A program made the translations under genes and the position numbers. A DNA stretch of 64,000 bases. It comes from Botryllus schlosseri. Lineage: Eukaryota. The stretch covers positions 17,672,001 to 17,736,000 of the forward strand of contig CM119372.1 of the NCBI GenBank assembly GCA_051294905.1, in the 5' to 3' direction. The notes beneath the pieces are model-generated. The model searched no databases. It saw only the letters and a list, made by a program, of their open reading frames with translations, and had not been told where the DNA came from. Positions 15,478 through 61,898 of this stretch are shown piece by piece. How positions within the stretch are numbered: position 1 is the first letter of the stretch; every line of letters starts with the position of its first letter.

Positions 15478-18400
15478 ATGTCGGACTCGTTCGTTCTAGG
15501 ATATTGGGATTTCAGAGGAGTAAGTGTATGTTTATTTGGGTTTCTGTGCAACGGATAAGCCCGGCATAGTTCGCTTACTGTGTGACGAGAGATGAAAAAA
15601 TGCAACGTTACTGCGTAATATGAGGGCGCTGAAACAATGCTTTACAACAGAGAGAGAATTGCGTTCGTCGTGAACACGCGAAAAACAGCAGTTGGATACG
15701 ATGCTTAAAACCAGTGGTTGTCAAACTGGGGGGCGTGAATGCATCTGAAGGGGGGTGCGAAGCTGTGGTCAACTGAAAATATGTTTCGCTAACATTTTCA
15801 CAGTCATAAAGGGGGGGGGGGTGTCTAAAAAAGTTTGAGGAACACTGCTTTAAACTTGAAGAATGATGGGCATTGAGCAAGTTCATGGCCCAACGTCCAT
15901 CTCGTGCTTGTAGGGGCACAGTATTAACAATTTAATTTTGAGAGGATGACAACGTTTAATAGTCAAATTTAAAGTTTCGTCAAAGTGAAATTGTGTTGTG
16001 ACCAATTCGATGCCAGTCCGCTGACGGTATTGAGAATAAGGTATTATGATAACGTATGGCCGCTGGCCGGTATGGGTAAGAATAACAGAGTGCACCTAAA
16101 TTTTGAATCAACAGTGTCCAACGTGCCACCGTAAAAGAAAATCATGCAGCCGTACAGCATGCTATTATGATTTACTACAGTTAGTTGGCGCCGATGTTCC
16201 CTCTAATTTCTCACGAGTCTGTGCGCATTCACCAACTCACTGCGCGGTCCCTTGAAACGACTAAAAAAAGTCATCACTTCGGCTTTTTTGTGCATGGCAC
16301 AGATTTTTCTGTGCGCGGCGACTTTGTCAGCAGTGCGCGGCCGCGCAGACGGAACATTGGTTGGCACTCAGGTCGGCAAAAAACGAAACCACTGTTTCAT
16401 ATGGTGACAAATAAATTATTGTTATCCATGAGTCGACCTTGTGGGCCTTGTGCAAATGACGGCACTCGGCAGAGTAGCGCTTTTTAGCTAATAATCTCAA
16501 TTTGATATAGTGCGGCCCGCAAATGTATTTAGATGTTAAATGCGGCCCGCGAGCCCAAAAGTTTGCCCAGTGCCCACCCTTGGTGTAGGCTATAAGTGTA
16601 TATTGTATAAGTGTGCGCAAAGTGTGCTATCGCATAATAGATTTCACGCAAATGTCGGTATTGCCCTGTCTAGAGTTTGACGGTGTTCCTTACCGTGATA
16701 GATGTCCAAATTAGATATGTCATATTTGAATTACATGAGATCTAACTGTTTGCGAAGTCTCAAGGGTGACACTCTATGATAGGGCAGTATCAATTTCGTC
16801 CTCGAAGTATTCTAATAGGCATATAGGCTGATATGCCATCCAGTCTACCTGCGAAACAGATTTTACGCAAAGGCAAGTATTGCCCTGTATAGATTTGAAG
16901 GTGTTTCATAGCGGGGGAGACGTCTAGGCGAGATCTAGTATCTATTATTCGGATTATGCGTTTAACTCTGTGCGAAGTGGCGAGATAGGGCAGTGGTATA
17001 ATCCGCGGCTGCAACACCAATGGGTTGCGGGTTCGAGTCCGACCGAGGTGGACTTCAGAATTCCTCCACCTAAGTGTCGGCTCCTCCACGCCACCTCATC
17101 CGCGTAAGCACTGTCTTACAAAAAAGCCTAGAAGTAGGCCGTGTTATGAGCAGAGGTGGTCAAAGTAGTCATCGTCGCTACTCAAGTAGAAGTAGAAGTA
17201 ACGCCGAAATTTCTACTCAAGTAGAAGTAGGAGTGGTGGTTCACAAGTAAGTAAGTAAGTAGGTATTCTACGCCTATTTTTGCCAACAAAACTGAAAACT
17301 GTCAAGTAGAAGTAGTCTAAAATCATAACTACTTAAAAAGTAGTGTGAGTAGGCAAAATCTACTTCAAAAAGTAGAAGTACTTCGTTACTGACCACCTCT
17401 GGTTATGAGTCGGCAGTTACGGAATAAAAAATGAAGAATATCGGCCTGGTGTAAATGACCATAGTAGTCGTGAAACACCGTGAATACCTCGAAACAAACA
17501 AACAAACTCTGTGCGAAGTTTCAGGGCTGTTAGGCACGGTTGGGGTAGTAATTTCGTTATCGAAGTATAGGTAGGTGCGCGCAGCCTAGCGCATAACGGA
17601 TGTAGATTTTAACGGTGTTGCATACCGAGAGGAGCGAGTCGCTTTCGAATTGTATATTTGGATTAGGGTTACCACACGACCGCTTTTAAGATGGTTTGTC
17701 CTCTTTTTTCAATAAATTGAAATCGTCCTCGACAGTCGAGTCAAAGTGAAAACCTTTTCTTTTTTTAGTCAACATCACGCACTATCGTAAAAAAGCGGGT
17801 AATTTTGGAGTCGAGCCAAAGTGATGACCTTTATTTTTTTTCAGTCAACACATATCGTCCAATGTTAAAAATCACCTGTTTTCGTGTTCGGTGCTGGAGA
17901 TTTCAGAATTTTAGGAGAAATCTCTTATTTTTGGGATCTCGAAATATGGTAACCCTCATTTTGATGATATGATCTAACGCTGTAGCAAGTTGCAATATTA
18001 CCACTAACTGTATAGGGTAGAAAATTCGTCAGCGAAGTCGAGCTTCCATAAGTGTGATATGACATCTCACCTCCGGCAATTTCCAGTTTAATGTTTTGTT
18101 ATAAATAATCATGTGCAATGGTAGCACGTAGGACACATATATTTTAGCGATTTTGGTGTCAATTCTTGCTGTTACCCCACTTGAGTTTAGCTCAAACGTA
18201 CTTGACCATAAGCTAAATCAAAAACCAATGGTACAGCTACACGCATTCGCCAGTCACACCTCATTCAGGGACATCTTCTGATTAATGAAAGGTTCGGTAT
18301 CAGTCAAGATCTAGCATCAGCGTGTGGATGGTACGAATCGATTATGACATTTAAAATCGAAATATAATTAGGATTATTGCCATTGTTGAATCTTGCAAGT

Positions 18401-30553: not shown

Positions 30554-31032
30554 TAGCTTTCAATACAACATCCATTGTATAGTAAAATATTTATTCAACT
30601 CGAAGACTTTTCGGGTGCCTCTTTTCAATAGTTAACGGCACACTGAAGGGATTTAAACAGAATGAAAAGCAAAACCAGAAAGGCGAAGTATGACGCAAGA
30701 ATCAGAAATTACATACCATGAAGTCCGCAATGATTTTCTGTATAACTTACAAATTTCCCATTAGTGCGTTCTAATTCGTGTTTGTTATTGTTTAGTTTCA
30801 AATTGCTATGTTACTAGTACCGTACACTTCAAGCTTGTTATTGTTGCCATTGTTACATTGCGGACTTCATGGTATGTAATTTCTGATTGTTGCGTCATAC
30901 TTCGCCTTTCTGGTTTTGCTTGTCATTCTGTTTAAATCCCTTCAGCGTGCCGTTAACTCTTGAAAAGAGGCACCCGAAAAGTCTTCGAGTTGAATAAATA
31001 TTTTACTACAATGGATGTTGTATTGAAAGCTA
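30554..31032. repeat. Foldback element with ~178-bp near-perfect inverted arms and ~120-bp spacer
   Basis: 30554-30732 is the reverse complement of 30855-31032 with few mismatches. Confidence 0.9.
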
Positions 31033-31804: not shown

Positions 31805-32520
31805 TAGGGTTACCATACGTCCTCTTTTTTAAAGGTGTCCTCGGAGGACGCCTTCTTGTCCGCTTTTTTGAGATTTTGTCCTCTTTTTTTGAGAATTTTG
31901 AAAATTCACGGCGAAATTCGACTGATATACAATACAATACAATACATTGGGTTATAATTTACATCTGAACAAGTTACACACAATGTACAATGCGATAAGA
32001 CACAATGCGATGTAACGAACTGATAGGAGAATGTCGAACGACACGCATCAGTAGCGATCCTTTACTCAAACATCCACCTCGGCCTAGAGTGCCCGATGTT
32101 ACAGCTCTTTTCGATGTTGATCTTTTTGAAGCCGCGCCCCTTTCTACAAGTTCTTGCCATTCCTTGCGAGTGCTTTCTTTCTTCGGGTCTTTTTCTGGGC
32201 TTTTTTTTGTCGCCGTTAGAACGGCGACAGCGGGGGAAGAGGAGCCAGATGAGCCTCCGACGGGAATCGAATCGGCTCCGCCTGCTTGGTAGGCGCTTAT
32301 ATCGTCACTACTACGCTATCTCCCCCGCCATAAATCGTAAATCGCCGTAAATCAGCACTGAAATAACCCTCCGCGGGTATTTCGGGAGCTGGGCCGAAAA
32401 GTTGACCTTTTTTTAGTCAACCGACGACGGGGTGGGAAAAATTTACCCCGCATTTGCAACTTTTAAAATTTTAAAATGTGTCGGATCCTCTTTTCAGATT
32501 TCCAAAATATGGTAACCCTA
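31805..32520. mobile_element. hAT-type MITE (tagggttacca family) carrying a retroposed insert
   Basis: TIR tagggttaccata / tatggtaacccta; TSD gaatgtag / gaatatag. Confidence 0.85.
31926..32335 (-). mobile_element. Short retroposed element with GC-rich head, LINE-type 3' tail and (TGTAT)n end
   Basis: The minus-strand tail ctaggccgaggtgg...gtcgttcgacattctcctatc...atcgcatt matches the LINE 3' end at ~60265-60400. It interrupts a host MITE segment that is seen intact near 25900-25950. Confidence 0.65.
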
Positions 32521-38115: not shown

Positions 38116-39734
38116 CTTTCAATCAATATATACCAAAATTGTACTGTGTGGCAGCGGCTATATTTTTCTAACATATATTTCTGAACAGGAGATATTATGC
38201 TTGGAGATTTTACTCGTGCCCTGAGCCTATGAAATCGTCAAGTATGCATTACCACAATCCGATAGTATAGTATACATCAATCGTTGCTTAATCCTAAAAG
38301 TTGTCAAAACTCCATGCATTTGGACACACCATGCTGATGCGTACTTGCCACCATTCATGTTCAAATTGTTCATTCTAGATTAAAACGCTGCATCTACATA
38401 CTAGCTCTGCGCTATTACTATTCATCAGGTCCAGCCATCCCCAATTCAATGTAATTTTGCTAAAAACCTTCATTTTTCAACCCTTTTCCATAAGAGCTCA
38501 TAGTAAGCTTGCCCGGGCTTGATGTTTGTTTACATCCTGCAGCAACCTGATTGGTTCGTGTCAAAGGTCACGTAAGTGTCTATTTCAGCAGCTTTCCTCG
38601 AAGTCAAGTTGCGGCATCTAAAGATTTTTCCGCATATATAGCTGCGATTTTGGCATGTCGGATCTCATTGACTTTTACAAGACTAATTGGTAAACATTTC
38701 AGTGTATCAACAGAGTTACTATTGTAGCTTATTCAGTAGTCGTTTTAGGGATTATTCTTGTTGCTGTGCGATCCGCAATATTATGCCGACACCAAGGACT
38801 ATACCAGTGCATGGTTCTTAACCTGGGTTCATACCATGCGCAGAGGTTCAAGGAGCGATTCTCATGGGTTTCCTGGAGGTCAAGACACACACCCAAATCA
38901 GATGACACGCCCTCCTTGGTCATTATTGGCTGCGGGAACTAGGCGCGATCAGTAGTCGAGTTGTTATGTTGCGGTGGTACGTCATGTGCAATTGTGCAGT
39001 GGCGTACGCGTGCGAGCCTAGTGTTCCACATAGAAATCCATCCTTGTGAATAGTTATTGGGGTAATTTATAATCTAAATATTAACTTAACACACGCTCAT
39101 TCGATTAAGATTATAAATTTGCTTTCTTCTCAGACTAGAAAGATCTGTTATCTTGGGAGCTTAATATAAAATATACTAGCCATGAGCAAAAAACTAATTT
39201 TGGGATATTGGAACATTCGGGCGGTAAGTATGCAGCGATAGCTTATAGAGAGGGATGGGATAGCAATGCCGGATTAATGTCGTTACAGTTTGCCGATCCG
39301 ATCCGTTTCGCGTTGGAATATACAAATGCGGATTACGAAGAGAAACTATAGGGGCAAGGTTGGCGGTGTAGAAAGTAACATGTAGTCTACACTCTGCGTT
39401 TTCTGCTTGGAATACATATTGATGTCATTAATCCTTAGGCGACCGAGACGTAAATCGAAACGGACAAATCGCAGATAATATAGACGCGTTGTATATACCT
39501 GCTACCCCTTCTTCTGTCCTTTACACCGGTGGCAAGTTTCCTGCCAGTCCGCTAAATAAACTAGAATCTTCTATTTCAATTACAAAATGCAAGAATTCGG
39601 AAGCTTGTTCATTAATTTGGGAGATAAAACCTCAAATTGTAAATTGATTTAGAAGTTCGGAACGTACTTTCTGCGTGGTGCCGTAATAGGCAGTTCATGG
39701 TCTACTTTCAGCGTGTACGTCACAATGCTTCAAG

Positions 39735-40320
39735 CATAGTGTCCTATATGGTGTCGACACAGGCAAATCTCACGCCTCAGTGAAATTGTATCACGTCACA
39801 ATTTCCATTTGGCTACAAGGAATTTGACGGTCATTTTTGACCGGCTTGCCGAGCATTAAATTTGGTAAAACGGGCATCAATCGAAAGCTGACTCTGCACT
39901 GATTACGAAAATATAAATTTTATTCCGCTCGTGGCCCTGGAACTCCCACAATCAGCCTCGAATTTTTCATTGTTATGGAGATTGGCATTCGGACTCAACA
40001 ATGCTGTCTGGCTCTTTTTCTCTTGAGCTACTCTCTCGTTTCGCCAGACAGCATTGTTGCGTCCCAATGCCAATCTCCATAACAATGAAAAATTCGAGGC
40101 TGATTGTGGGAGTTCCAGGGCCACCAGCGGAATAAAATTTATATTTTCGTAATCAGTGCAGAGTCAGCTTTCGATTGATACCTGTTTTACCAAATTTAAT
40201 GCTCGACAAGCCGGTCAAAAAGGACCGTCAAATTACCTGTAGCCAAATGGAAATTGTGACGTGATACAATTTCACTGAGGCGTGTGTTTTGCTTGTGTCG
40301 ACACCATATAGGACACTATG
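39735..40320. mobile_element. Foldback MITE with CATAG...CTATG ends and 7-bp TSD (P-superfamily-like)
   Basis: Near-perfect inverted arms of ~270 bp; TSD cttcaag at 39728-39734 and 40321-40327. Confidence 0.85.
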
Positions 40321-40920
40321 CTTCAAGCTATGTACAAAACTGTTCAATAGTAGCCTACAACTCGCTAAGAAAAGTTATATGTGAATAATCAAGGAGAAAT
40401 TTACAAAAACTTCGCTAAATGTGATTAAGCGACACCTATTATAATAGAGGCTCTAGCAAACAGCAAAGACGCTTCTTTCAACAGAGCCAAACAATCACGA
40501 ACAAGTTAGTGGTCTTGGCTGACTTCGCTAGCTTCTTGCAGAGACTTCAATAAAACCAAGTACTAATATATAATATCAAAAAGGTACAATTAAATGAAAT
40601 TTCCAATAATACTTTTGAATTACATACATTTGTCACCATTAAATTTAAATTGAATTCTGATTTTTGAAGGTTTGGTCGGTCCGTCAGGTCAAAAAGGCTG
40701 AGAACAACTGCTTTAAGCCTACACCATAAAATTCTACAGCATTGATTTAATAGCGGAGCTGAAAGATTTGGAAGATATAGTGTACTGGTGAATAAAAGTG
40801 TCCGAATGTTGAATCTGCTCCATTGAGTCGTTCTACGCTAACCGCGAGTCCCGGTTAAGTGCGAAAGTTTAAGAGTGTGCGATGAAAAGAAATGTAAATA
40901 TTTATACTTGCCTGCTCTCG

Positions 40921-41212
40921 GCTACACTTCCGCGATATCGTGAGTTGCGCAACACAACCGTCGCGACACCATTGTGTTGACTGAGCTCAGCTCCTCCCTC
41001 CTGACCTCCTCATCGCCGACCTCGTTGTGAATACAGTACCTCCAAAAGCCACAAGCTACAGCCGGCAGCTGAATCCTACGCTTAGGAACAGAAAAAAAAC
41101 GAAGAGGCCTAAGCCTAGGCCGAGGTTGGTGTCTGATTTCAAAGACTACTCCAAGTCGTTTCGACACCTTCCTATCTTTTCAGTGTATCGCAATTCTTGT
41201 GATGTAGTATGA
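40921..41212 (+). mobile_element. Short retroposed element with LINE-type 3' tail in GST copy 2 intron 2
   Basis: The tail cctaggccgaggttggtgtc...gactactccaagtcgtttcgacaccttcctatc matches ~60265-60350, ~42318-42370 and ~9750-9800. It is absent from the homologous intron of copy 3. Confidence 0.65.
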
Positions 41213-43298
41213 GGCTACAATATAGAATGGTGAGAATCCTGGAAATCGTCGTCGGTTCAACAGTTATATAGCACGTAGATATGGATCATTGGTACGAAAT
41301 GGATGTTCTAATGATGATGACCTCCGACCGCAATACTGCTGCATAGTGCATAACGATGTAGTCCAGGTTAAAGATTTTTTTGTCCGCTCATGACAAGGGT
41401 CGGAAGCCTTTCTCGTCAAAGGAGCCATATTTACCTTATACTTTCAATTGCCGGGGTCAATCTATGGTGACGTCACAATTAAATATTCGTGACGCAATGG
41501 CAAAAAAAGCAATAAAAACATGTTTTTTAATTTGTGTTTTAAATGCAACCCTTGTTATAGCGAATAATATGAAACGATATGTGTGTGTTCACCAGCAATA
41601 TAGACTGTTGTTAACTACAGATTGTGATTCCAGCACCAGACTTCGATCGATCGCAGTGGACAAAAGAAAAATATTCACTGGGTTTGGATTTCCCCAACGT
41701 ATGTTAAAAAGTTGACAATACAATATACATTACTTTGTAAATTCCTTCAAATACGTATTCCAACTCAGCTGCCATACATTTTGGACGGAGACTTGAAAAT
41801 GACTGAATCCACTGCATGTCTGAAGTACGTCTGTAGAAAGTACGGGCTAATGCCGAAATCCGACAAGGTCATGGCAAGAGCTGAAAATGTGGAAGGTAAG
41901 TGGACCTTATATGGGCCCACGTCATTTTCGTCTAAATCAGTGGTTCTTAACCTTGTTTCCATCGCCCGGGGGCGATTTTGATTTCGAAGGGAGCGGAAAC
42001 GCTCAGGGGGCGAAATGCGGGCGCAGGGATCATGGGGCGGTATTGGGGGGCGCTGAAGAAAAATGGCCACGCAGTAGATGGTGTAATAAGGACATATGAT
42101 TATATAGTGGAACAATAGTTCTATATATCCCTGAGTTCTCATTGCCAACTAACATTCAACAAAATCTGTCAAATCACAACGTTTTCCGTTGCGCTCATCG
42201 TGAAATATCCACCGACCATGTTTTCATGAATTCAGTGGTTTATTTCAATTCATGTAACATGAATTTGGCGTATTTTTGGATTGCCAATTCCCCATTATTA
42301 CATTCCCGTACCGCTAGCTACTCCAAGTCGTTTCGACACCTTCCTATCTTTTCATTGTATCGCAATTTTGTGCAATGTATAATGTATAATGTATGTGTAT
42401 GTGCAATGCATAATGTATGTATAATGTACAATACGTACACTAATATTGACTTGTTTCGAACTATACAGTTCTCCTGTGGCATTTTCGGTAAAACCAGAAA
42501 TTAGATTTGAATTACAATTAGAGCATAGAAACATGTCACAAATTAGATTAGAATTACATTACTGACGATTTCAATTAGACAACTAGAATTGACATATTTT
42601 TACAGTAAAACGCAATCCGTTCACCAACCACTGATTTGTTACATAGCTATTCTCGATGATTTGAAACGATCATTTTTCGGACAATTCTTCGTACCGTAAG
42701 TGAAGAAAGATCTCTCTCGACTGTCCTTGACCCGTGATAGGTTCCGCTTCGCGTGTTTTACCTGCATGCATTGATTGTTACCACTGTATGGTCAGTACTT
42801 TGACTTACGCCTCATACTTTTGTCTGTCCTCTGCGTATGTCCTTGGGGACGGATGGACCCGCGTATTTTAGCTTTCTTAGCTCATGATTTTACGGATTGT
42901 ATCAATAAAGAGCACGCCACCCACAGTGTATCCACGAACTTGTGACCCCAACGTGATGGACTTGATGGTGTTAGTGACCTTGTGGGTTTCCCTGGATCGC
43001 ATTGCGAAATTTCCTCTGAAGACTCCATCTCGTGATGACAGACACAAGTAAGAGGGGCATAGTCAAAGTAAACCATATAAACGTCACAATCAATCCAGGT
43101 AAAACACGCGAAGCGAAACCCAACCAGCAAGCTTTAAAATCTTACAGCGATGACAAATATGAGGAGACGAAGAAAGCATTCAAAGAGAATAAATATCCTG
43201 ACGTTATGAAGAAAATTGTCGCTTTCATGGGTGGAAATCAATGGCTTATCTCAAACGAGGTCATATGGTACTGCTGATTACATTCTACGTGATAAATT

Positions 43299-43808
43299 TA
43301 TCGTTGCATTTAAAACAAATGGTGTTACAAATACTTTGTTTAAAACATGTTTCAAACAGCACTTTTTTAAATGCCTTTAAAAAAAATCGTATTTTTTCAA
43401 GCGTATACTTATGCCATAATCATGTAAATACTTTTTGAAAAAACACGTGCGGACGATTTGCACCCGATATTGTCGTCGTATATGATATGGATTGTTGGAT
43501 CCCTCGAAATCGTCATCGGTTCAATAGTTGTAGAACGAAGATACTGATCATTGGTGCGGAATGAATGTTCTGATGATGACGACCGCCGACCGTAAAATGC
43601 TGCATAACGATGTAGTCCTGGTTAAAGATATTTTTGGTCCAATTATGACAGGGTCAGTAGCCTCTTTCATTAAAGGAGCCATATTTACCCTACATGATGT
43701 CACAAATAAAGAGCCGCGATTTCATGGTTGACAAATAAACAAACAAAAAAACATGTTTCAATCAGGGGCTAATATGTTTTATGCATGTTTGTTTTAAATG
43801 CAACCCTA
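43299..43808. mobile_element. hAT-type MITE in GST copy 2 intron 6
   Basis: Ends (ta)..gttgcatttaaaac / gttttaaatgcaacccta; TSD gataaatt / ggtaaatt. Same family at ~53229-53776 and ~41228-41551. Confidence 0.8.
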
Positions 43809-44312
43809 GGTAAATTGCCTTGTTAATATGTGTTACAGATATCCTATGTCGATTTTGCGTTTCACCCTCTGTTGGATTATGCGGAATGCCTCAACCCTGG
43901 TTGCACCAAAGAGTTCCCGAGACTTGTGCAATACGTCGAGGACTTCAAGGTTTTTTCTACTACATGCGCAATGTCAATCTATCACAGCTTACAAAGAGCG
44001 TTTGTATTTCTCAGGCACTGCCGGCCATCAAACGCTACATGTTGTCCGACAGGTTCAGCGCCTACCCAATCACTAACCCATTTATTAGATGGGGTTACAA
44101 AAAAGAATGCTGATCATAAATTCTGGGAGAGAACTGTACTTGTATGTGCATGTACAATCCATAGACCGTATGTGCCGATAGACTATGATTATATTCTGGT
44201 CATGACCTACAACTTATTGTCTTATTAGCACTCATAGCTGGTGAGTTTGGTAGACATCAGCGGACGATGTTGTATGATATGTCCGAACAGATGAAGCATA
44301 GATAGCTGAACA

Positions 44313-44813: not shown

Positions 44814-47758
44814 GCTAAACATAACAAATTTCGTAGGTTGAATAGCTGCGAATTGTGTTCAGGCATAAGCAGTCGTAGTAAAATACACGTACAATATTCC
44901 GTGAAAGTTTGAGGGACTCGAAGTCCAACAAATACCCGGCTGACACGATGTTTTGCGCTCGTTTGGAAGCGAACTATTGCTATTCAGGTCGCATGCACTT
45001 CCCACGTTAAATAACGTCTCGATACAGTTTCATGGTGGCGAATTTGAATTGAAAGAATTCGCAGGCATTGCTTCGAATTTAGCTCAAACGGCAATTGCAG
45101 AGCTTCGTGTCGAGATATAGAGATATACTTGCAGATCAGGGCGTAGGCAGAAGGAGAACTCACTATTCTTGTGCAATTGCATGGCGTATGTAATAAAGCT
45201 GAGTATGGCCATCTACGACGTTGTGATAATCGCAAGTCGCAGCCCGAGTCGCAATTTTCTCGTGACTCGACTTGACATGAGTGATTTCTTGACTATGAAA
45301 AATGACTCGACTTAAATCCGAGTCATTGCATGTGATACAAGACATTCGATAAGACTTGATTCAAGTTTTATCTCATCTTTTGATAGCCTTTCCCGGATTT
45401 CTGATATTTTCTCACACTGATTTGCGCTTCGACAATCCCATTACGACATGAAATTAAACTCTCCTTGTTACGAACGCAGAGCGAGAGCAGCTGAGCCCGA
45501 GTTCGTACACTCGTGACCTTTGGGTATCGTGTTCGTATCCAGGACCATAACAGCACTTTGTCAGCCCTCCTCAAAAGGCTGGTCTTGGGTGGTCTAGGGT
45601 GATAAACCAAACTTCTGGGGCCTTCGCCCTACAGACCCCCCTCTGCGCCGTACGTTATCACGAAGATAGAGTTCTTGTTCTCGGAGATCAGCGAACTATT
45701 GTCATCTCGTCGCAAAAATCGCGAAAAAAATCAAAGTCATGGTTGAATTCGGTCTATGAAATTGGAATTGTATATATTACTGTCAAATATTAACTACTAA
45801 TAGCCAGCGTGCTTATTGGCGTAGTGGTGTCTTTGAAAATTTAGGGCCTGTAATTTATACTTATCTGCGGGCGGGCCCGTTGTTATCAATTACTTTGTTG
45901 TGTGGTGTTATTTCCTGACCTCCCGTCTGCTATATAGCCAAACGATTTCGGAATCTCTGAAACGTACCAGACCTAAAAAAACTTCTTCCTTGCAACGCAC
46001 AAGACTGAAAGTGGCATTTCTTCGCGGGGCGCATAATTTTCTCTGCGAGTGTCATTTGTAATGTGGGGCTCAGATTGCCAGGAAAAGAATATTAGACGCC
46101 ACCCATTTTGGCGACTATGGACAAGGCAAAATTCGACATATATATATGTCGGTTTCGGCCAGCATGAGGCGGTCGTTTTGGGTCAAGGTTTTCTCGCCGC
46201 CGAGCCTTTTTGCAGCACTCTTCGCAGAGTAGTGAGCCGAAACGTCATTGTCAACGTCTTGGTGTGCATATCTCAATAAATTATGCGTTTTTTTCTTGGG
46301 TAGGAATACCCATATTAATGTGAAGACAGGAAGTTCTATATATATTTAATAATACTCTATTTTTTATGTTAATTTACGAAACAATTTTAGGCCTCCTTCG
46401 AGCTCGAGTCCTCCCAATTGTCTCCTACGGTCGTGATTCCATCCAAGGATCGGCAACCCCTGGCACGCGGAATAATTTTTCACGGCACGTCAAATGGCAC
46501 ACGGACATAATATTGTTATGTTCATGCATTTACGTTTCAGTGTCGTACAACTCTTTCTTTCTATAGGATTAGTAATTACAACCAATCATTATTTCCTCGT
46601 GTGTCGTGCTTGTATTTATACCCTGTGTTCTGTTGTCTCGTGGTCTTTCATTTAACTGTACTCTGGATCGTGTCGCTGCCTAAAGTTATACTGCTGATAA
46701 TATACTGATTTCTTATTGCAACCTCGTCGCATTGAGTTATTGTTCAAACAAGATCAAGGACATAACAAATATAATCATGTTTATCAAGGGAGAGTGAAAA
46801 AAGTTTTTCGTTCTAATCAAAAAAGGGGTTATTAAATCCCGACAAATGACCTAAAACTTCAACAAAAATTGATTTAGGGGGTTATCCTCATTTTCCAGTC
46901 GGCAATCACCCAATTTCTGCACGCGGTGGGGTAAAATTGCCTATCTCGTCCACCACTGGCTGTAGAGTCATGATTCTACCTCCAAAGCAGCCAAAACATC
47001 ATGTTTCTATGTCCTAAGAAGAAAGTTTTCTCCATTTTGAAGTGACAGCTCAAAACGAGTTAGAGCAACAACAACAACAACAAAATAACAGTAAAACTGC
47101 TATTTTTTCAAATTTTGGCGTTATACACTACAGCTTGCAACATAACAGTGCAGTTATTCACTCCAAATAAGCCAATGTGTTATTTTGAACAGATTGCGAC
47201 CGATGTTCCCTCTGATTCTTCACGAGTCTGCGCGCACTCACCATCTCACTGCCCGATCCTTTGGACAACAGTGCGTAACGACTAAAATAAAGAGTGTTTC
47301 TATGTGTCGGAGGTTTATCTGGGCTCCTCATCGCCGATCCCGCTGTAAATACAGCGCCTTGAAAAGCCCAGAAGAAGAGAGAGCCGAACTCTGGAAAGAT
47401 GGCAGCTAAGGACCAGAAAAACGAAGCAAGAGCGCGAAAGACAATGTGTTAATGCAATTAATGTGCTGGGCGCAAATAACCATATAGGCGAGAAGCGCCA
47501 ATGTTGTGAATAAAACAAACAAAACAAACTTCGGCTTTTTTTTTGCGCAGCTTAGATTTTCTGTGCGCCGAGACCGTGTCAGCACCGCGCAATTGCGCAC
47601 ACGCGCTGCTCAAAGTAAACATTGATTGTGACTATACTGTTGGGACATCGGGATCAAAATTCGAAATCCCCGCATCGAGGTTTATACTCCTTAATCCCGG
47701 GATTAGCAAAGTAGTGAAATGCACAGCTCATGCAAGCTACACAAACAACATGAATTCC

Positions 47759-48021
47759 TTGTTTGTTTGTTTATTGTATTCATGGTGTTAGTTGACCACA
47801 ATAATCATTTACACCATATGACATTCCTTATTTTTTATTCCGTAGCTGTCACATTGTAGCACGGCCCACCTCTAGGCTTTTCATGACACCGCTGACGCGG
47901 ATGAGATGGCGAGTAGGAGCCTAGATAAACCTTCAAAACTTAGGTGGGAATTCTGGAGTCGGACTCGAACCCACCACCCATTGGTGCTGCAGCTGTGGAT
48001 TATACCACTGGGTATCTCGCC
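47759..48021 (-). mobile_element. tRNA-derived SINE (family A)
   Basis: The minus strand begins ggcgagatacccagtggtataatcc...gggttcgagtccgac, as at 16979, and ends in an (AAAC)n tail. Confidence 0.85.
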
Positions 48022-49041
48022 ACATCTAATCCTTGTAATATTGACGCAAAAACATGAGCGCATCAATTGTGTCATCGTCTAATCCAGGGGTTGAACCTTT
48101 TTACTATTCACCGCCGCACTTCGATTACATCAGGGATATCTAGAACTTCTAGTTCTACTTAGTTCTAAATGTCCATGGATTACATATACAGCGTACGACA
48201 ACATTCCATTGGACAGTCGTAATGGACCACCTTGTCGCAAAACAGATATGTTATATTGGCATCAAGGCCACTTCGCATCGCGAAAGCCCTTCTAGTGTTC
48301 TGAGTCATCACTATTTTCTCGTAAAATACCTTGCGCATGAAAGTATTTTAGTTGTAGAAGCAGAACGCCCAGCACGCACGCTTACAATTCGAACCGAAAT
48401 CTAATGTACTAATGTTCTAAAAAGTTTTTGGCGTGGTTCGTCTAGTCGCGACGAGCGCGAAATTTTCTCACCGTCGTGCATGCTTCTCGTCGATAATATT
48501 GGTTGCTGCATATATTACTATCAAATATTCATCCATTCTCAGTTCAGGTGGTCAGATTTAGCGCTGATGGAATGGGTGCCTTCGAAAACTTTGGCGCATA
48601 ATATACGAGGATGTGTCTTCGAGTTGTTAATAATCCCTTGTTGCATGTTGCTATTTCTTGACGTGCCATCACGATCGTAGGTATAGTAAAAACATATGTT
48701 GCAGGGATCGCCCAAACGTACCAGAAAACCGTCATTCGCGAGATGCATACAATTTCAAATTGGTATTTCTTCATGGGCCGCATTCGTTTACTCTTCTGTT
48801 CGCATTTAATGAACGTGGGGGCTCAGATTGCAAGGACTCTATATCAAAATCGATTAATTGATTCTGTGGCCACAGGTTGACCATCCCTGGTCCAAACGGT
48901 TTCCTAATTTGGTATGAAGTCGCCTTGATGCCAATATAATATATATATATATATTGCGACAAGGTGGTCCTTTACGACCGTTCAATGAAATGCGGCCGCA
49001 CACTGTATATGTAACCTAGGAATATCTAGAACTATTGTAAT

Positions 49042-49876
49042 GAGAGAGAGAGAGAGAGAGTCTTTATTTTCATCGAACCAAAATACATAACAAACGGCAG
49101 TGAATGTGATACAGAAAATATGCATGCACAGTATTCGGTATTAGATAGGAATGATCGATAAGACCGTGAAGGTCATCTAGTCTGATCACACCAGCATCAA
49201 ACAGGTACACTTGACTCAGAACAGTCTGGCTGTAAAAAAATGTTTAGTTAGGAAAGGAAAATAGAAAAAAATTAAACAATGGTAGCAAATTATCAATGAA
49301 GCAATGTCTGGGCGAGGTAGGGCAACAGTGTTAGTGTAACGACAAGAGGTGATCAAGTAGGGCTTTTTTGAATCTATTATAAGGCAATTCACGGATATGT
49401 GATGGTAATGCATTCCAGATGATAGGTCCCGAGTAGTCGATAGATCTCTTAGTTAGGTTGCTATTGGGTTGGGGTAAGTAGACGTTTCCTTTAGACGAAG
49501 ATCTCGTGTAATGGGAATGGACATGTTTAGCAGGTATGAAAAAGTCATCAAACACAGGAGGGAGACTATTGGAAAAATATTTGTGAACAACTTTTGATAC
49601 TTCGAAGCGATACAGTTCATCAACTCGCAAAATTCGATGCTTACGGTAGTAAGGCGATAAATTGGTACGTAAAGGTACAGATGAGATCAGCCGTATCGCA
49701 CGGTTTTGCAGGGTTCGAATTCTGCACAAAAATGTTGTACATGCATTTCCCCATACTACGATTCCATATTGCAGATGCGAGTGGAAAAGAGAGAAGTAGA
49801 TGGTTCGTAGTACTGATCTGGAAACCAAAGATTGGAGACGGGTCATTATTCCCACACACCGAGCTGCGGCCCACAT
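49042..49876 (-). mobile_element. 5'-truncated CR1/L2-group LINE (ORF2 C-terminus and 3' UTR)
   Basis: ORF 49331-49876 reads LRTIYFSLFHSHLQYGIVVWG...LQNRAIRLI...HSHYTRS...YSGPIIWNALP, the typical C-terminal region after the RT domain. AATAAA and a (TC)n tail follow on the minus strand. Confidence 0.9.
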
Positions 49877-49948
49877 CGTCTACCACGGTAGGAAATTGGC
49901 CTGTGAACACTTTTGAATTGGTAACCCCTCTACACTACACATCCCATC

Positions 49949-49970: not shown

Positions 49971-50677
49971 ATCCCATCGATCAAATATTGATACTGCCGA
50001 ACGTTAGTAGCTGGGCGACATCACTTTTATTTTAAAATCCTGGACTGCCTATATATGTTTTTCTTTCTTGATTGCCGACTATGCCGAGTCATCATGATAA
50101 CCATTCGACAGCACTCATGCATGACGTGCGCACTCTCGTGAGTGTGCTACACATTGTGTAGCCTAGCAGTCATTCACTCCAACCCACGTCCCAGGCGTTG
50201 TGTTTTATTTCAAATGGGGTAGTACGGTTTTGACTTCGCTTAAAGTAGCAGCCTACCAACAGAGCTACTACACGGTAGCTTATAATTAGATGCTCTGTAG
50301 TCGTTTTAGGACAAGTTCATATCAATTCCAATTATATACGTATATCGCATACATCTAAATTGATATATATATCATTGACCAACATCAAGGTACATAGATA
50401 GGATAGCTAGCATTGACTGCGTGTAAGGCAGTAAAGGCACCAGCAAGCAATGATCATTGAGATACGGAAAATGAATTTTAAGCTTGATGGCTTGTAGATT
50501 TCGCGTCGATGTGGTATATGAATTGCATCCTGAGGGAAATTTATATTCTTCAAATCAATCTCATATTATTGTCCTAAAAACGTGTCAGATCCCTTTAGAT
50601 TTTATGAATTTGATTTTTTCAGACTGCAAGGTCAGTAGTATACCGTTATTTTAGTAGTTTGACATAAAATACTAGCC

Positions 50678-53600
50678 ATGAGTAAAAAATTAACGTTAGG
50701 ATATTGGAACGTTCGGGCGGTAAGTATACGGAGATAACTTGTAGAGAGCGATGGGAAAGCAATGTCCTATTTTATCCGTTGAAGCTTGCCGACCCGATCA
50801 GATTCGCGTTGGAATATGCAGAAGCCGATTACGAAGAGAAGCGGTATGAAATGGGTCCAGGTAAGCGATACATTGTACAAACGAATATGTAGCCTATACA
50901 TTGCCGGCCTGTTATCTTAAAGGGGCACTGCGCTCTAAAAATGATGTGGTCTCAAATTGAAGGTAAAAACGAACAAAAATTTTTGGCCGCAGCCATTTCC
51001 TTCAGAACGCCACCGTAATGGAGCTGGAATTTATTGAAATTTCTACAAGACCAGCTGCCGCGGCTGCTTAACCCGTTACATGGCACGATGTCTTCATCGT
51101 CGCACTTGCTCGACGCGATAAGGCAGTCACGCAGAGAACGAAACTTAGACACATTTACTTCATAACATCGGCTGACAACTATCTAAAATTCGCTCTCTGC
51201 GTGACTGCCTGATCGCGTCGAGCAAGTGCGACGGTGAAGACATCGTGCCATGTAACGGGTTAAGCAGTCGCGGCAGCTGGTCTTGTAGAAATTTCAATAA
51301 ATTCCAGCTCCATTACGGTGGCGTTCTGAAGGAAATGGCTGCGGCCAAAAATTTTTGTTCGTTTTTACCTTCAATTTGAGACCACATCATTTTTAGAGCG
51401 CAGGGCCCCTTTAATATCAATAATCCACAGGCTAATGACACGCAAATCGAAATGAATAAGACATATATAATAATATAGACAGTTAGACACGTTATATATT
51501 TCTGCTATCGCTTCTTCTGTCCTTTGTATTGTCAAGTTTACAGCATTATTGATTTAATCGCGGCGCTGAAAGCTATTGAGAAATTGCGTAGCGCCGTTAT
51601 AATAGTTTACTGGCGAATGAAATTGTCCAAATATTGAATCTTCTTGGTTGATTCATTACCAAAATCGTAGGTCCCGGTTACGTTCAAATGTTGGAGAGTG
51701 TGCGATGAAAAGAAATGTAAATATTTATACTTTCCCGCTCCATGAGTATATAGGGCCTACTTATCTCCCGCCCCGGATTCGTGATTCAGCAAATTATATT
51801 TCGCTGTTAAATTCATGCATAACTGAATAATTTTTCAATATAAGGGCCTTGTATTAATCCTTCCATCGAAGGCTTCGAAGTGCACTCGACTCCGCTAAAT
51901 CCACACACTTTGGTTCGGCTTTTGGCCGAATTAAGCGGAGAAACAGCTTTGTCCGAATTGTTTGTTTCGTGGTCATACGTAATGTAACATAAATCATTAA
52001 AACACTGCATTGTTGCTTGACAAATGCGTCGCATCTGCGCTATACTGCTGTAATTGGCACTTATCGCATAAAACGGACGAGAGTTATTAGACGCATTGTG
52101 CAATAATTCGATACCAAGCGATTCCACAAAAAAGAGTACTGCGATTCTTCAAATACAGTAGTAAGCTATCCACTTTATTTCGCAGTTTGCTTTGTAAGTG
52201 ATTTCACTTTTACTGTTAAACTTCCCTGTGTCATTCTGTTCTACAAGACGAACACAATGTCACCGAAGTTAAAGCGACAATGTAGCTGGCTTATACGGTA
52301 TGAGTTAATTGTCGATTGATACTACATGTATCGTCATTGTTTGACCATAGACACTAGAGGTGTCCGAATTCAGCGGATTCGATTGTGTACGGTTTGACGC
52401 ACGCACATATATAAGTTATGCACTTTACTTTATGTAGCCCGAGCGCCGATAATCTAGGATGTGAAATAGAGATTATGACTCCCGACGTTAACTATGATTC
52501 CAGCACCAGACTTCGATCGCTCACAGTGGACAGAAGAAAAATTTTCACTGGGTTTGGATTTTCCTAACGTATGTTAAAAACTTGACCATACAATATAAAT
52601 GACTTTGATAATTCCTTCAAATGCGTGTCTCAACTCCATTTCAGCTGCCATACATTTTGGATGGAGACTTGAAAATGACTGAATCCACCGCTTGTCTGAA
52701 GTATGTCTGTAGAAAGTATGGGCTGATGCCGAAATCCGACAAGGTCATGGCAAGAGCTGAAAATGTGGAAGGTGAGTGGACGTTTCATGGGTTTTCACTA
52801 TTTTTCTTGTATGCAATCATGACTCTTTCTTTTCGATTCCCGACCAACTTCCTATGATTCTTATGGATTCCATCATATGACACTAATACCATTTCAGATA
52901 ATAATGAACTTTTCGTATATAGCTACCTTAAGAAATGAAACGGTAACTAACCACTGAACCACTGATTTGTTACAGCAATTCTCGATGATTTGAGAAGATC
53001 ATTTTTCGGACAAATTTTCGTGCCGTAAGTGGTGAAAGTTTTCTCTCGACTGGCCTCTGGCCCGTGATAGTTTTTGATTCGCGTGTTTTATCGGCATGGA
53101 TTGATTGTGACCTTCGTGGTCAGTACTTTGACTTACGCCTCGTGCTTTTGTGCATAATTTGGGGCGGACGCACGCGCGCATTTCGGCTTACTTCTCGACA
53201 TGCCGCTACGTATTGACGTATTGTATGGACGGTTGGATTTAAAACAAACGGTGTTTTAAAACACTTTGTTTAAAACATGTTGTAAACAGTGTTTTAAACA
53301 AATGCCTTTTTTAAAAAAAGTTTTTTTTTAACGTTATTTAATTATGCCGTAATTGTGTAATTACGTCCGAAAAAACATGTAGTATGAGCCTACGGACGAT
53401 TCGCACCCAAAATAGTCGACGTATACCATGTGGGGTGGATGGAATCCTCAAAATCGTCGTCGGTTCAACAATTTTTGCACGTAGATATAGATCATTGGTA
53501 CGGAATGGGTGTTCTGATGATGATGACCGTCGACCGTAAAAATGCTGCATAACGATTTAGTCCTGGTTAAACATACTTTTGGTCGGTTTATGACAGTGAT

Positions 53601-54419
53601 CGGAAGCCCTTTTTTCGACGGAGCCACATTTCAATTGTCAATGTCAATCCAATGTGACGTCAGAGTTAAATATTCGTGACGTCATGCCTTAAAAAAACAA
53701 TAAAATACATGTTTTAAACAAGGGCCTTGTTTTAAACATGTTTGTTTTAAATTGATTTTTTTCAAATGCAACCCTAACTGTGTCAATAAAGAGCCAGGTC
53801 GTGAAAATATCGACCTTGTGGCCTTCCTTGCATTGCATTGTGATATTTCCTCTGAAGACTATATTCGTTGATGACAGACAAAATCAAGAAGCGTACAGTC
53901 ATAGTACTGGCAATATAAACGTCAAAATTCAGGTAATACACGCGAAGCGGGAAGCTTAAAATCTTATTCACAGTGTTGACAAATATGAGGAGACGAAAAA
54001 AGCATTTAAAGAGAATAAATACCCCGACTTTATGAAGAAGATCGTTGCGTTCATGGGGGGAAATAAATGGCTTGTCTCAAACGAGGTGATTTGATATTGC
54101 TGGCTATATTTTTCGTAAATGACCTACTGTTATTATGAGTTACAGATATCGTACGTCGATTTCGCGTTTCACACTCTGTTGGATTATGCGGAATGCCTCA
54201 ATCCTGGTTGCACCAAAGAGTTCCCTAGACTTGTGCAGTACGTCGAGGACTTCAAGGTTTCGTTCAATCATATCCGCAATGTCACGCGAACGCCCTTATA
54301 GAGAGCGTATTTTTTTTCAGGCACTGCCGGCCATCAAGCGTTACATGTTGTCCGACAGATTCAGCACATACCCCATCACTGCTCCAATTGCGAGATGGGG
54401 TTACAAAAAAGAATGCTGA
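50678..54419 (+). CDS. GSTM: Mu-class glutathione S-transferase, copy 3 (intact)
   Basis: Exons 50678-50719, 50785-50860, 52504-52568, 52645-52771, 52976-53024, 53974-54085, 54146-54256 and 54321-54419. They give MSKKLTLGYWNVRA-LADPIRFALEY...[34 protein letters not shown] (mu loop)...ALPAIKRYMLSDRFSTYPITAPIARWG. Confidence 0.96.
50921..51410. mobile_element. TTAA-specific (Kolobok-like) foldback MITE in GST copy 3 intron 2
   Basis: TTAA at 50917-50920 and 51411-51414; near-perfect inverted arms of ~215 bp; AG...CT termini. Confidence 0.9.
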
Positions 54420-55578
54420 TCTTCAAGTATAGTTCTGGAAAAGAAAAGTACAATTCTTTGTGCGTATCAGCCAAACGATTAAATTCCGGACACGAGTTTA
54501 GTCTATTTTCTTCGCACATCTAATATGCAAGATCATAGTAGGTATTAGCGGACGGTGTTGTGTGATAGACAGCAAAACATGACAATCGGGGTGGTGTGAA
54601 CGTGAAGTTCACGTTCGCGTTTTGAGTGTGAACGTCAGAAATGTAAAGGTTCGTGTTCACTCTAATTAATATCAATGTAGCAATAGTCAGTTAATAGAAG
54701 CAGTCAATTATCGGGAGCAAATATAGAAATCCGTACACTCTGATCAATATAAATGTGTATAGCAATATAGTCACACGCCGAATACGTTGCCCGGTCTAGC
54801 CTAGACCGCTAAGACATAAGCTTATATTTCCTTGCAAGTCGTCGTCGACATTTTCGGCTCATCGACGGAAGATAATTATTTTATGGGATTATTATACCAT
54901 TTGGTTTTTCCAGTTGATACATTTGATGATGTTTAAAAAGTCAGCGTATACTCAAGCATTGTGGCAAAATGTGACCTGAGTCGGCGCTATCGGTACAAAT
55001 ACAAATCCGCATTTTTCAAAAAAGTCAGTTGAAGTCATTTTTACAAAGTGACTCGAGTCAAGTCAAGTCAACTGAAAAAGTTGACTCGAGTAGTCCAACA
55101 CTGTTACATTCTCCATGTAGCTTGAATACACCGAATTCGCAGTGTCGTTTTTGCATCTGCTAATAACTATTTCTGGTCCATTTCCCAGAACACTCTGAGC
55201 TAAAGGTGCGCAGTTTTTGCCTTCTCGGAATTTGTTTTCAATGTTCCAATGGTTACTAATATGAAAACGCAACACTGTTGTCAGATGGTCATATTGTGGC
55301 CCATGAAAATGTCATTCTCAGTCTTGAGGGAATATTTACATCAGGGTTCCCCAACCTTCCCACTCACGACCCATGTGAGAAGCCGGCGACTGTGTGCGCC
55401 GTAATAGTAATCGTGCAATTATACGAACCCGCAAACCTTCGTCTGGCGTCTATCAAGACTAGCAACGTATAGGTCTTTTGCAATGATTTATATCTATATC
55501 CACTCGAAGTAGTCAACTAGGGGTACGTGAAATTCGCGACATGTGAAATGCGTGTTTGTTTGTATGTATACTGTTAAC

Positions 55579-58493: not shown

Positions 58494-58756
58494 GGGCGCA
58501 GAACCTGTTTAGAGGTTATACTGCAACACCAATGGATTGCGGGTTCAGTCCAGCCGAGGTCGACTCCCGAATTCCTACCTAAGTATTCGAGGTTCATCTA
58601 GGCTCCTCCTCGCCACGTAATCCGCGTAAGCGGTGTGTTAAAAAGCCTAGAAGTGGGCCGTACTACAAGTCGGTAAATACGGAATCATAATAAGGAATAT
58701 CGGCCTGGGGTAAAATGACCAATGTAGTCGAAGCACCATGAATACCAAGCAACAAC
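58494..58756 (+). mobile_element. tRNA-derived SINE (family A), diverged
   Basis: The body aligns with 16979-17504 once the MITE is removed (ctgcaacaccaatgg.ttgcgggttc...aaaagcctagaagt.ggccgt...atatcggcctgg). Confidence 0.8.
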
Positions 58757-59894
58757 GATACATATCCTGTGATTATTGTGGGTATGCGTCATACTATATA
58801 ATTAAGTCATCAGCGTAATCTTGTCGGCCGATAAAACGGTGAGAAAAAATGATCGTAAAACGTAGGCTACTGACGAGAGGCTGAAAACGCGACCTCGTTA
58901 GAGACGTCGATTTCGGCATTCGCGCCACGAAACATCATCTCCTATCACGATTTTACGACCAAATGAACTTTCCTTTTCTAGATTAAATAGTATTTTCCTC
59001 GATAAGCGCCGTAAGCCGCATTCAGAATAATTTGATAAGTATTTTTAGTCGGAGCGTGTAATTGGACAATATATTATTGTGGCTGCCCGCGAATTGGAAT
59101 TTATTCCGGCCAACAATCGTTACTCCAATAATTCTTTGTCAACGTAAATCGGGAAATGCAGCAATGCAGCCAAAATCGCTGTTTCAATCAGAAAACAATT
59201 GTCGCGATGCGATAAGAATCCCATTGTGATGGCGTAAGAGTGAATTACTGATTGGCTGCGCGCTTTCTCGAAGTAATCATCATTCCCGTCTGCTTAACAC
59301 ATTATAATCCAGAAATGACGCGTTATTTGTCAGTGCGTAATCACGATGAGAACGTGGGGTTCACGTTCGCGTTCGGTGTGTGCACCTCGGAAACTTGGAG
59401 GTTTACATTCGCAAACGAACCTTTACACTGCAAAGCGTTCCTAGAAATACCAAGTTATTTCAAAATCTTCGGTTGAAATTGGTGAAATTATTTCCATATC
59501 AGCTTCGGATCACCCTCTGCATGGCACTGGTCGCATGTAAAGAAATTCGGCACTAAATTAAGAAGCACCTTGACACGCTCCAAAATTGTAGCTGCTGTGA
59601 TATAAAAGTTTGACTGAAATATTCAGTTTTTCCGTTGGTGAATATTTAGGACACTCTACACCAGGGGTGTCAAACTCAATTGGGGTTGCGGGCCGGCTTC
59701 AAACCTCCTGATCGCTCGCGGGCCGGCTTCAAACCTCCTGATCGCTCGCGGACCGGATCCAGCACTCATATGATATCAAAATGTTACCTCTCTACCCGTA
59801 CCCACGTTTTTCACTTAAATACTTTATTATCAAAGCCTATATATGTATTGGAAGGGATATCCCCTTTGGGCCCCCTCTTGGCTACGCCAATGGA

Positions 59895-60402
59895 TTGTAG
59901 AAAAGAACTTTAAAACCGTTTTGAGAAACATCCGAATCAAAAGCGCACAAGTACAACATACGCGCGTCCACGTCGTCCAAATATCATATGATCGACCGAA
60001 AAGATCATCGCTCCATCAAATATGCCGGACCTGATGTGTGGAACAGTATCCCGCCGGACATCCGACAGTCGACGAGCATGTCCACATTCAAGTCGAAATA
60101 CAAGCAATTACTACTAAATAAATACAGTCCATCCTCAAGATTACCGGACCACGACTGACCTATCGATCTCGCTTCCCATGACATGCCGCCCTATTTCTTG
60201 TCGCATTCTTCTTCTATACTATCTTCTTTACTTTCATTCAGTGTGCATGCATCCTCTTTACATCGCCTAGGCCAAGGTGGGTGTCAGATTCCATAGACTA
60301 CTCCTTGTCGCTTCGACATCTTCCTGTCTTTTCATTGTATCGCATTTTTGTGGTGTATTGAACTGATAAAATTGCTAATAAACCAATGATGATGATGATG
60401 AT
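59895..60402 (+). mobile_element. 3' end of a CR1/L2-group LINE
   Basis: Reads IKYAGPDVWNSIPPDIRQSTSMSTFKSKYKQLLLNKY, then a 3' UTR, AATAAA and a (GAT)n tail. Confidence 0.8.
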
Positions 60403-61898
60403 CCGCACTTTTCTGTTTGAAAATATTTGATCCGCACAAACCATAATCGAAAATCATTACACAAAATAAAAATGAATGACCAGCAAGTCGGCTACCGGCT
60501 TGTCAATGCCTCGGTTGCTGCTGAATATTTCTGGCAATTGCAGACTATTTCATCAAAACTTCTTGCCTCAAAGCTCCCCGCATTAGGCCATCAAGTGCAC
60601 AACCCCTTTTTCTCGTTTTGATGTAAATTAGCATAACAAAGCCCTTTTAGGCGAAATAAGTAGTGAGGTGTTGTACAGGAGCTTCTAAGGCTTTGGATAT
60701 CCAAGTCATTATACCGGCTTTCGAACCAGACTTTTGATTGCGTCATAATGATAATCCAAAAATTTTATTCATTCTAGCTGGTGAGAGATAAAATTATTGT
60801 AAAAGCTACGATTACCGCTGCGTGGTAAGTACAACAAGTTTTTACAAATGTTAGGGAGACAATGTACTTAATATCCTGTCAAGCTTATTTGAACTATTCC
60901 ACGTTATAAAAAGTAAAAATGTGCACAATTTCCACTCATCCGCACCACGTTTGTCATCCGCACGGACCGCACTGCATTTTTTTTGTCCATCCGCACAAGC
61001 GCGTACTATCCCACAGGTTGAAAAGCACTTCTGTAGAATATTGAGGCTCCTATGTGATATTTGTTTGATTCACACGTACAGTAGTGACAGTGGCGCTTTC
61101 GAACCACGCGCTCTTACACTATTAATACCTGTCGTATCCACTCGTCAATGTCTTCATCATTTGGACTGACTTCTTCGGGCTTTTTATATCATTACATATA
61201 GTATGTGCAAATGCAGTGCATACGCACTTAGGTCAGCGATGAGGAGTCGAGATATACCTCCGACGGACATACAATAGGCAGTAGAGCGCTTCAGGGACAC
61301 TTCTGTTGGTGTCTCTTATAGTTGTATAAGTAATCTTACGTGGGGAGTTACGCTTGTCGCCGCACGACGATATATCGTCGCCGTAAATGCTTTTTTGTGG
61401 CGATGTGCGCGGCATTCGAAAATCGAAATCCACGTTCGCCTCACTTTAAATCAACCACTTCCATATCTCCATTATACACATACATTCTTGATTGGGGGTC
61501 GGACACTTCAACAGCACTATATTGTAATGCTGCGGCCCACGGCGTCTCTACCAAGTCATGATATTGGCCGGCGATCACTCTTTTTAGTCGTTGACCCCTG
61601 CTCTATAGTTGGAACAAATCTAGTTACCTTCATGAGTTTCCTTATTCACTTTCTTGGTTGCCAAGTCATCATTATAACCAACCAGGCATCAGCAGTTATG
61701 CATGATGGATGATTAAGCGCATAGGCTTAGCATTCATTCACTCCAACCAGAACCCTCGTGTTGTAATCTATTTCAATCTAATTGTTGTAAGCTAGGGAGC
61801 GTCCAATTTCAGAAGCTATTGAAGTTATTTTCTCAAAGTCTAGTTGACGATGTCTGATGCTTTTTCGCATACACCTGCGATTTCGTCACGTCGTATAG

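Follow-up and report, generated by a model that had tools for sequence, protein, structure and literature searches.

Introduction

In the short interspersed element (SINE) superfamilies that carry a conserved central domain, a tRNA-derived head is joined to a common body of ~70 nt and to exchanged tails derived from long interspersed elements (LINEs) (PMC5804259, PMC5786205). The function of SINE central domains is stated there to be unresolved, with three untested hypotheses, and it is an open question why SINE families keep the middle domain yet swap heads and tails (PMC5804259). Here, we analyze a recurrent motif in a 64-kb window, the whole stretch of 64,000 nucleotides from Botryllus schlosseri contig CM119372.1, in which all positions are numbered from the first letter. 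The window consists of animal DNA that is rich in miniature inverted-repeat transposable elements (MITEs) and holds CLPX-like and GST-like exons. A sequence-only reading of this DNA had proposed a structured RNA segment on tail-swapping retroposons, with a conserved SINE core among the options, and this part of the reading was right. We conclude that several families of tRNA-derived SINEs have inherited the motif as their central (body) domain, with a probability of about 0.7 for the identity and fold of the domain and a lower one for its role.

Comparing this locus with the described systems, the SINE superfamilies likewise combine a tRNA-derived head, a common body, and exchanged tails; unlike their cross-taxon domains, the present one has been seen in one species so far. 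The Meta domain is similar in length (66 bp), lies just behind the tRNA head, and is followed by variable tails (PMC4824008, PMC7245038), whereas its letter identity to the motif looks low, its probes do not match, and its pyrimidine tract has a different likely partner. The Vhc subdomain of V-SINEs is likewise a conserved body segment with a predicted stem-loop that is kept in the whole SINE RNA (PMC4758252). However, Vhc forms a single 40-nt hairpin with an internal loop, whereas a long-range helix, an inner hairpin, and a possible crossing helix are present here (PMC4758252). The hepatitis delta virus-like (HDV-like) ribozymes of R2, RTE, and L1Tc/ingi resemble the motif in a P1-P2-P3-P4 order that can be drawn and in their retroposon host (PMC3185411, PMC4035085, PMC6765202). 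Their place is the extreme 5' end of the element, with cleavage immediately upstream, whereas the motif follows a head that is retained, shows no P1.1, and is not matched in Rfam.

Results

Recurrence of the motif

Seven copies of the motif were found in the 64 kb. They are referred to as c1 (47.3 kb), c2 (32 kb), c3 (61 kb), c4 (41 kb), c5 (58.6 kb), c6 (47.9 kb), and c7 (17 kb). Four had been placed before, and all four were confirmed at 47306-47372 (+), 32262-32194 (-), 61264-61174 (-), and ~41000-41054 (+, without the 5' part). The other three were added by a profile search at 58585-58651 (+), 47937-47871 (-), and ~17075-17132 (+). The genomic copy set comes from this one window. With c1 as the sole query, five other copies were retrieved at 14.1-20.1 bits, whereas the best score in 20 dinucleotide-shuffled windows, used as the chance control, was 5.6 bits. 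Moreover, a covariance model built from six copies recovered c3, which was not part of the model, at 26.6 bits, and the runner-up match reached 9.6 bits. The recurrence of the motif is above chance.

Exact patterns of the full motif gave no matches in viral contigs and none in metagenome contigs. Relaxed patterns of the 5' half matched 21 metagenome and 13 viral loci, and the 3' helix strand was present in none of the 34. We rejected these loci as chance matches, as their scores (at most 25.8 bits) stem from the stretch that was used to select them.

One body with several heads and two tail types

A tRNA-type head with A and B boxes is present on four of the seven copies (c2, c5, c6, and c7), that of c5 being decayed. 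The B box of c2 (32273-32262) directly adjoins the motif, and the head type of c2 differs from that of c5, c6, and c7, which constitute one family. The full-length member of this family, c7, is flanked by exact 14-bp target-site duplications (16965-16978 and 17506-17519), and its body reaches 17132 with the 5' part deleted. For c6, the target-site duplication is decayed (~15 bp, by eye), and the joint 47761 to 48037 was found in one X1 contig. The headless state of c1 is due to its 5' truncation. This copy sits within a MITE, where a clear target-site duplication was not seen, and reads with joints 47287 to 47537 represent the empty form of the MITE.

Heads for the c1 type were obtained from RNA reads. 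Approximately 6% of run X23 was read, and 17,087 reads were placed at 80% likeness. Of these, 3534 extend past 47295 on its upstream side and enter one B-box head, and 1177 do so at 47298 and enter a second, different B-box head; the first of these heads was also found in DNA contigs. It had been stated previously that no tRNA A/B boxes are visible and that the retroposon is of a non-tRNA kind. That statement does not hold, given the boxes directly before the motif in c2, the heads of c5-c7, and the read-derived heads of the c1 type. ARAGORN detected no tRNA genes, and Rfam no intact tRNA, in the window.

The tails differ between copies, as had been proposed, with a tail of the L2/CR1-group LINE on c2 and c4 and an (AAAC)n-type tail on the others. 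The c4 tail shares 85% identity over 94 nt with a LINE end at 60265-60357, and the c2 tail aligns to the same LINE tail at 60.3 kb. The (AAAC)n-type tail is common to c1, c5, c6, and c7. Judged by tail likeness, the LINE end at 60.3 kb is a candidate partner LINE of the c2/c4 type, which we take to belong to the L2/CR1 group from the look of its peptide and tail. The (AAAC)n-type tail resembles, by eye, tails that are linked in the literature to Nimb/I LINEs, and its partner LINE was not found in the window. Overall, one body is joined to several heads (that of c2, that of c5-c7, and the two read-derived heads) and to two tail types.

Several further observations concern the carrier elements. 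In c5-c7, an extra ~30 nt lies between the B box and the body (58552-58584; 47960-47938 (-); 17041-17074), and a segment 3' of the body could pair with it. The start of this extra segment presumably recalls the body of other animal SINEs. In loose ends of X6 before 47885, the last helix strand is that of the known copies but is followed by a different sequence, which reveals one more family, and therefore the domain is carried by more families than the window holds. The (AAAC)n-type tail contains a stem of its own, at ~47465-47500 (+) in c1 and ~17455-17482 (+) in c7, with paired changes between the two (GGCGC/GCGCC versus GGTGT/ACACC), as expected of a LINE recognition stem-loop. In addition, the LINE tail occurs without the body domain in three short copies (9739-9814, 11559-11651 (-), and 42318-42379), which probably represent the ends of LINEs or SINEs after strong truncation.

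Two helices with paired changes

Within the c1 body, TCTGGGCT at 47318-47325 pairs at all eight positions with AGCCCAGA at 47365-47372, in agreement with the sequence-only reading. No pair of this 8-bp long-range helix is mismatched in c1, c5, or c6, where its mean pair probability is 0.93-0.99, and a perfect 8-bp helix arose in just 11-34 of 2000 shuffles per run. The structural alignment comprises six of the seven copies; c3 was excluded for its insert, and for part of the long helix, c2 is misaligned by a single column. In this alignment, 83% of 89 cells pair, compared with 30-49% in slid controls. The long helix shows a double-sided change at one of its eight pairs (G-C in c1 and c2, A-U in c5 and c6), and the inner hairpin shows double-sided changes at two of its four pairs, to which c3 adds a third (C-G to G-C). 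Hairpins were found at 47341-47356 and 32229-32208, as predicted earlier; the accompanying claim that they differ completely in sequence was wrong, as the inner four pairs are homologous. The loose ends of reads contain the same hairpin stem with other loop sequences. Moreover, where the c1 type and the c5-c7 type have fixed differences, these lie in loops or bulges or affect both partners of a pair, and the similarity between families fades, by eye, within a few bases of the last helix pair.

A number of points weigh against a selected fold and its supposed role. As would be expected of decaying copies, the pairing of the long helix is interrupted in c3, c4, and c7, and the helix of c2 has a bulge. 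The seven genomic copies represent a few related lineages and yield ~4 double-sided events. The number of pairs changed on both sides (three) is not significant against the shuffled mean of 2.1 (171/500), and relatedness alone can beat the shuffle control. The arms of the hairpin may also be matched by mutational palindrome correction, as perhaps in the perfect 9-bp stem of c2. Folding z-scores of the whole motif are modest on the + strand (-1.68 for c1, -1.18 for c3, and +0.98 for c4), and the reverse strand of c1 folds better (z = -3.22). In addition, the stabilizing or insulating function of the fold is one that we infer. The covariation support for the long helix and the hairpin is real but thin, because the few events lie in related lineages and their count is not above the shuffle. 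The coordinates of all copies, their carriers, and the associated elements are given in Table 1.

Table 1 Motif copies, carrier SINEs, and associated elements in the window (positions of the window)
Feature	Position	Strand	Details
Shared body domain, c1	47306..47372	+	GAGG 47310-47313; long-range helix 47318-47325 with 47365-47372; CCTC 47326-47329; hairpin 47341-47356; A-run ahead of last strand
SINE c1	47295..47527	+	5'-truncated just behind head; (AAAC)n tail
MITE split by c1	47200..47620	.	Sister copies 6090-6272 and 16191-16359
SINE c2	31975..32329 (3' end approximate)	-	A box 32318-32306; B box 32273-32262; body 32262-32194; 9-bp hairpin 32229-32208; L2/CR1-group tail
Body copy c3	61174..61264	-	Long helix decayed; hairpin 61228-61215 with C-G to G-C swap; ~25-nt extra insert; head not recognized; tail ends AAACAAA, weak likeness to c1 tail
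Copy c4	41000..41206	+	3' part of body (to 41054), then tail common to LINE end at 60.3 kb
SINE c5	58495..58760 (ends approximate)	+	Decayed head; B box 58541-58551; body 58585-58651; (AAAC)-type tail
SINE c6	47763..48021	-	A box 48012-47997; B box 47971-47961; body 47937-47871; (AAAC)n tail
SINE c7, full-length	16979..17505	+	A box 16989-17004; B box 17030-17040; (AAAC)n tail
LINE 3' end	60000..60390	+	C-terminal piece of open reading frame 2 (ORF2) and 3' untranslated region (UTR); tail common to c2 and c4

RNA reads at the motif

For 46900-48100, a search of sequencing runs listed no RNA run of record. In X23, the RNA depth at the c1 motif was ~50x that at the c6 motif (4755+4731 versus 92+90), and the summed DNA contig depth in X1 was similar for the two (209,180 for c1 versus 259,097 for c6; not copy number). 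X21 was strand-biased at the c1 motif (100 versus 1941), and the flanking MITE bins were strand-biased as well (49 versus 466). The loose ends in X21 agreed at 0.93-0.99, and one or a few loci may therefore dominate. Active transcription of a c1-type family is suggested. We rejected the depth ratio and strand bias as proof of transcription by RNA polymerase III, as the MITE flanks share the bias and the loose ends suggest one or a few dominant loci.

Discussion

A model for the SINE body domain

In the element that we propose, RNA polymerase III would transcribe from the A and B boxes observed in the tRNA-type head. The body of the RNA would then fold into the 8-bp long-range helix, which closes a pyrimidine tract, a hairpin with a variable loop, and an A-run, both helices having the support of double-sided changes and of folding. 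Beside this helix, the upstream GAGG may pair with CCUC to form an H-type pseudoknot, a step that we put forward tentatively. By analogy with established SINE biology, the LINE-derived tail would recruit the reverse transcriptase of the partner LINE, with which the tail is held in common. Template switching, a mechanism as proposed in PMC4824008, would exchange heads and tails around the domain. The job of the fold is most likely non-catalytic: it may act as a self-contained spacer that stabilizes the SINE RNA and separates the folding of the head from that of the tail. Selection on the source copies would keep the pairing while loops and flanks drift.

The two helices show paired changes across coexisting families, and RNA structure therefore offers a directly testable reason why a middle domain is kept. 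Seven copies in 64 kb suggest, when extrapolated from this one window, thousands of copies genome-wide, which would be enough for a covariation test.

A possible crossing helix

The domain may be a true H-type pseudoknot under selection that would block nucleases on the SINE RNA or dock a protein to it, a possible refinement of the body-domain reading to which we give a minority weight. Stem 1 (GAGG/CCUC) would be stacked on the 8-bp stem 2, with a U-rich loop 1 of 4 nt and with loop 3 containing the hairpin and terminating in the A-run. The spacing between the two stems is zero, the 4-nt loop and the A-run are kept wherever present, and the arrangement matches textbook H-type geometry. GAGG is intact in four of the five copies that keep the segment and CCTC in six of seven, and the deviating letters of c6 are private, as the family majority differs at 47933 and 47914. 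However, covariation lends the pseudoknot no support, since none of the four GAGG/CCUC pairs of the crossing helix has a double-sided change. Among shuffles that possess the 8-bp helix, a crossing helix of at least 4 bp occurs in 19/33, 8/14, and 26/34, and in every copy several partners compete for the purine tract. The pseudoknot drawn in the sequence-only reading is geometrically possible, but the covariation is absent and such a crossing helix is common by chance. The part of it that paired TCGG with CCGA has to be given up, as CCGA is absent from c2, c5, c6, and c7. A literature search aimed at a pseudoknotted SINE body did not find one described, and the SINE central-domain papers among its listed matches were without the word "pseudoknot."

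We regard as doubtful the more far-reaching view that the motif constitutes a SINE superfamily domain not described before, with a sea-squirt-like host as its first source, which forms a selected H-type pseudoknot and is possibly the catalytically dead descendant of an HDV-like ribozyme of a LINE. If true, the pseudoknot domain would protect or present the SINE RNA and mark the module boundary for the exchange of heads and tails, and the conservation of SINE central domains would have a concrete structural explanation. Should the crossing helix hold, this would be a pseudoknotted SINE body.

Relation to known central domains

It is unlikely that the motif is a strongly diverged derivative of the Meta domain (MetaSINE) rather than a new domain, although their parts follow a similar order by eye: a long-range helix with a 5' strand ending in G-Y-T, then a pyrimidine tract and a small hairpin, and last TT(A/G)AA and the 3' strand. 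ACCTAAG lies just upstream in c5-c7, as in three printed bivalve Meta sequences, but is absent from c1-c4. Meta SINEs occur with Nimb and CR1-Zenon partner tails (PMC11481361). The identity to Meta is approximately half by eye, with many gaps, whereas 61-86% has been reported for its members (PMC4824008). Moreover, the pyrimidine tract of Meta appears to pair downstream, which is impossible here. Two 19-nt Meta probes with up to three mismatches had no match in the window, although these probes would miss members near 65%.

The probes used for V, Nin, and Meta were short and taken from paper supplements, so that distant members would be missed. One 20-nt probe for the V/Vhc core (PMC5804259 supplement) had no match in the window with up to three mismatches. 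Two probes for the Nin core had none either, apart from two chance-level matches outside the SINE copies (1.04 expected), and a comparison by eye with one CORE sequence, one Ceph sequence, and Deu as printed revealed no match. Literature searches, including ones for tunicate SINE domains, did not find the motif described, figure alignments and some supplements being outside their scope. The Ciona SINE name Cics-1 gave no matches. By comparison with Rfam, with short probes, and by eye, the central domain is probably undescribed and of an already known kind; an entry in a repeat library is possible.

Common descent and ribozyme ancestry as unlikely alternatives

The segment could also reflect recent common descent only, its pairings being an unselected leftover. 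In their core, the families lie close together, with few compensatory events and with several of the copies broken. However, the fixed differences of the c1 type from the c5-c7 type occupy loops, bulges, or both partners of a pair, and heads and tails differ entirely. We consider this account quite unlikely.

We consider it highly unlikely that the 5' UTR of a LINE was the source from which an HDV-like ribozyme was captured, with the domain as its disabled relative. By eye, the segments GAGGU, short linker, UCUR, GGC-loop-GCC, ACCUC, hairpin, linker, and YAGA approximate the order P1-P2-P3-P1-P4-P2, and the 8-nt pyrimidine loop resembles L3 of HDV. LINE 5' UTRs are documented as a source of SINE bodies, and several LINE clades have HDV-like ribozymes there (PMC5786205). 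However, no GG follows the putative P1 to form P1.1, and no conserved G or GG is present up to the hairpin in the copies or the read ends; HDV-like ribozymes combine helices P1, P2, and P4 with a 3-bp P3, and the P1.1 pseudoknot of 1-2 bp is among their defining features (PMC3185411). The putative P1 is ~5 bp, and its 3' strand (ACCUC) is the most variable part, intact in two of seven copies, whereas the 3-bp P3 (GGC/GCC) competes with the stronger 8-bp helix. HDV-like ribozymes carry a catalytic C in a short purine-rich J4/2 linker, whereas the linker before the last strand is an A-run here, with no conserved C ahead. Rfam returned no matches over the window at the gathering score. Up to E=10, the c1, c2, c5, and c7 stretches matched no HDV-like family, and the unrelated matches lay far below the gathering score.

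An active self-cleaving ribozyme (HDV-like, hammerhead, or a new class) that releases the element RNA is scarcely credible: the compact fold, the possible pseudoknot, the retroposon host, the start of c1 and probably c3 close upstream of the motif, and the hammerhead-like string UUGAAAA in c1 would fit, but heads remain upstream in c2, c5, c6, and c7, where cleavage would strip the promoter, UUGAAAA is complete in c1 alone with no GAAA after a second stem, and in thousands of RNA reads the head is joined to the motif, no read-start pile-up being listed there, although the fragmented libraries and a possible antisense origin of the reads make this weaker evidence. According to PMC5786205, an element with a self-cleaving ribozyme downstream of an RNA head would be truncated. 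The ribozyme option raised earlier is disfavored, as the upstream heads survive retrotransposition and stay joined to the motif in RNA reads. Hammerheads have two conserved core strands around stem II, and we rejected one of the Penelope type, given the full UUGAAAA in c1 alone, no conserved second core strand by eye, and no Rfam match.

Neighboring genes and repeats

SINEs and MITEs are nested in both orders in the window, as c1 and c2 lie within MITEs and a MITE (17151-17401) is inserted in c7 with an 8-bp target duplication (17143-17150 and 17402-17409). A 182-codon open frame at 49331-49879 (-) had no Pfam match and looks like the C-terminal end of another LINE ORF2. Duplicated GST-like genes occupy 39147-44149 and 50645-54463 (+), with a Pfam GST_C match (E=0.0003) for 43827-44225, and c4 lies among them. 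Exons of a CLPX-like gene at 484-718 and 2340-2887 (-) encode zinc-finger cysteines and a Walker A motif, and a short intron near 2525-2471 splits the zinc-finger region; we take the CLPX name from a reading of the peptide. With one CLPX-like exon as query, a homolog search aimed at the host group scored none of 71 candidates. In addition, long near-perfect inverted repeats (92-97% identity) are located at 39727-40328, 50914-51417, and 30554-31032 and are probably foldback elements or MITEs.

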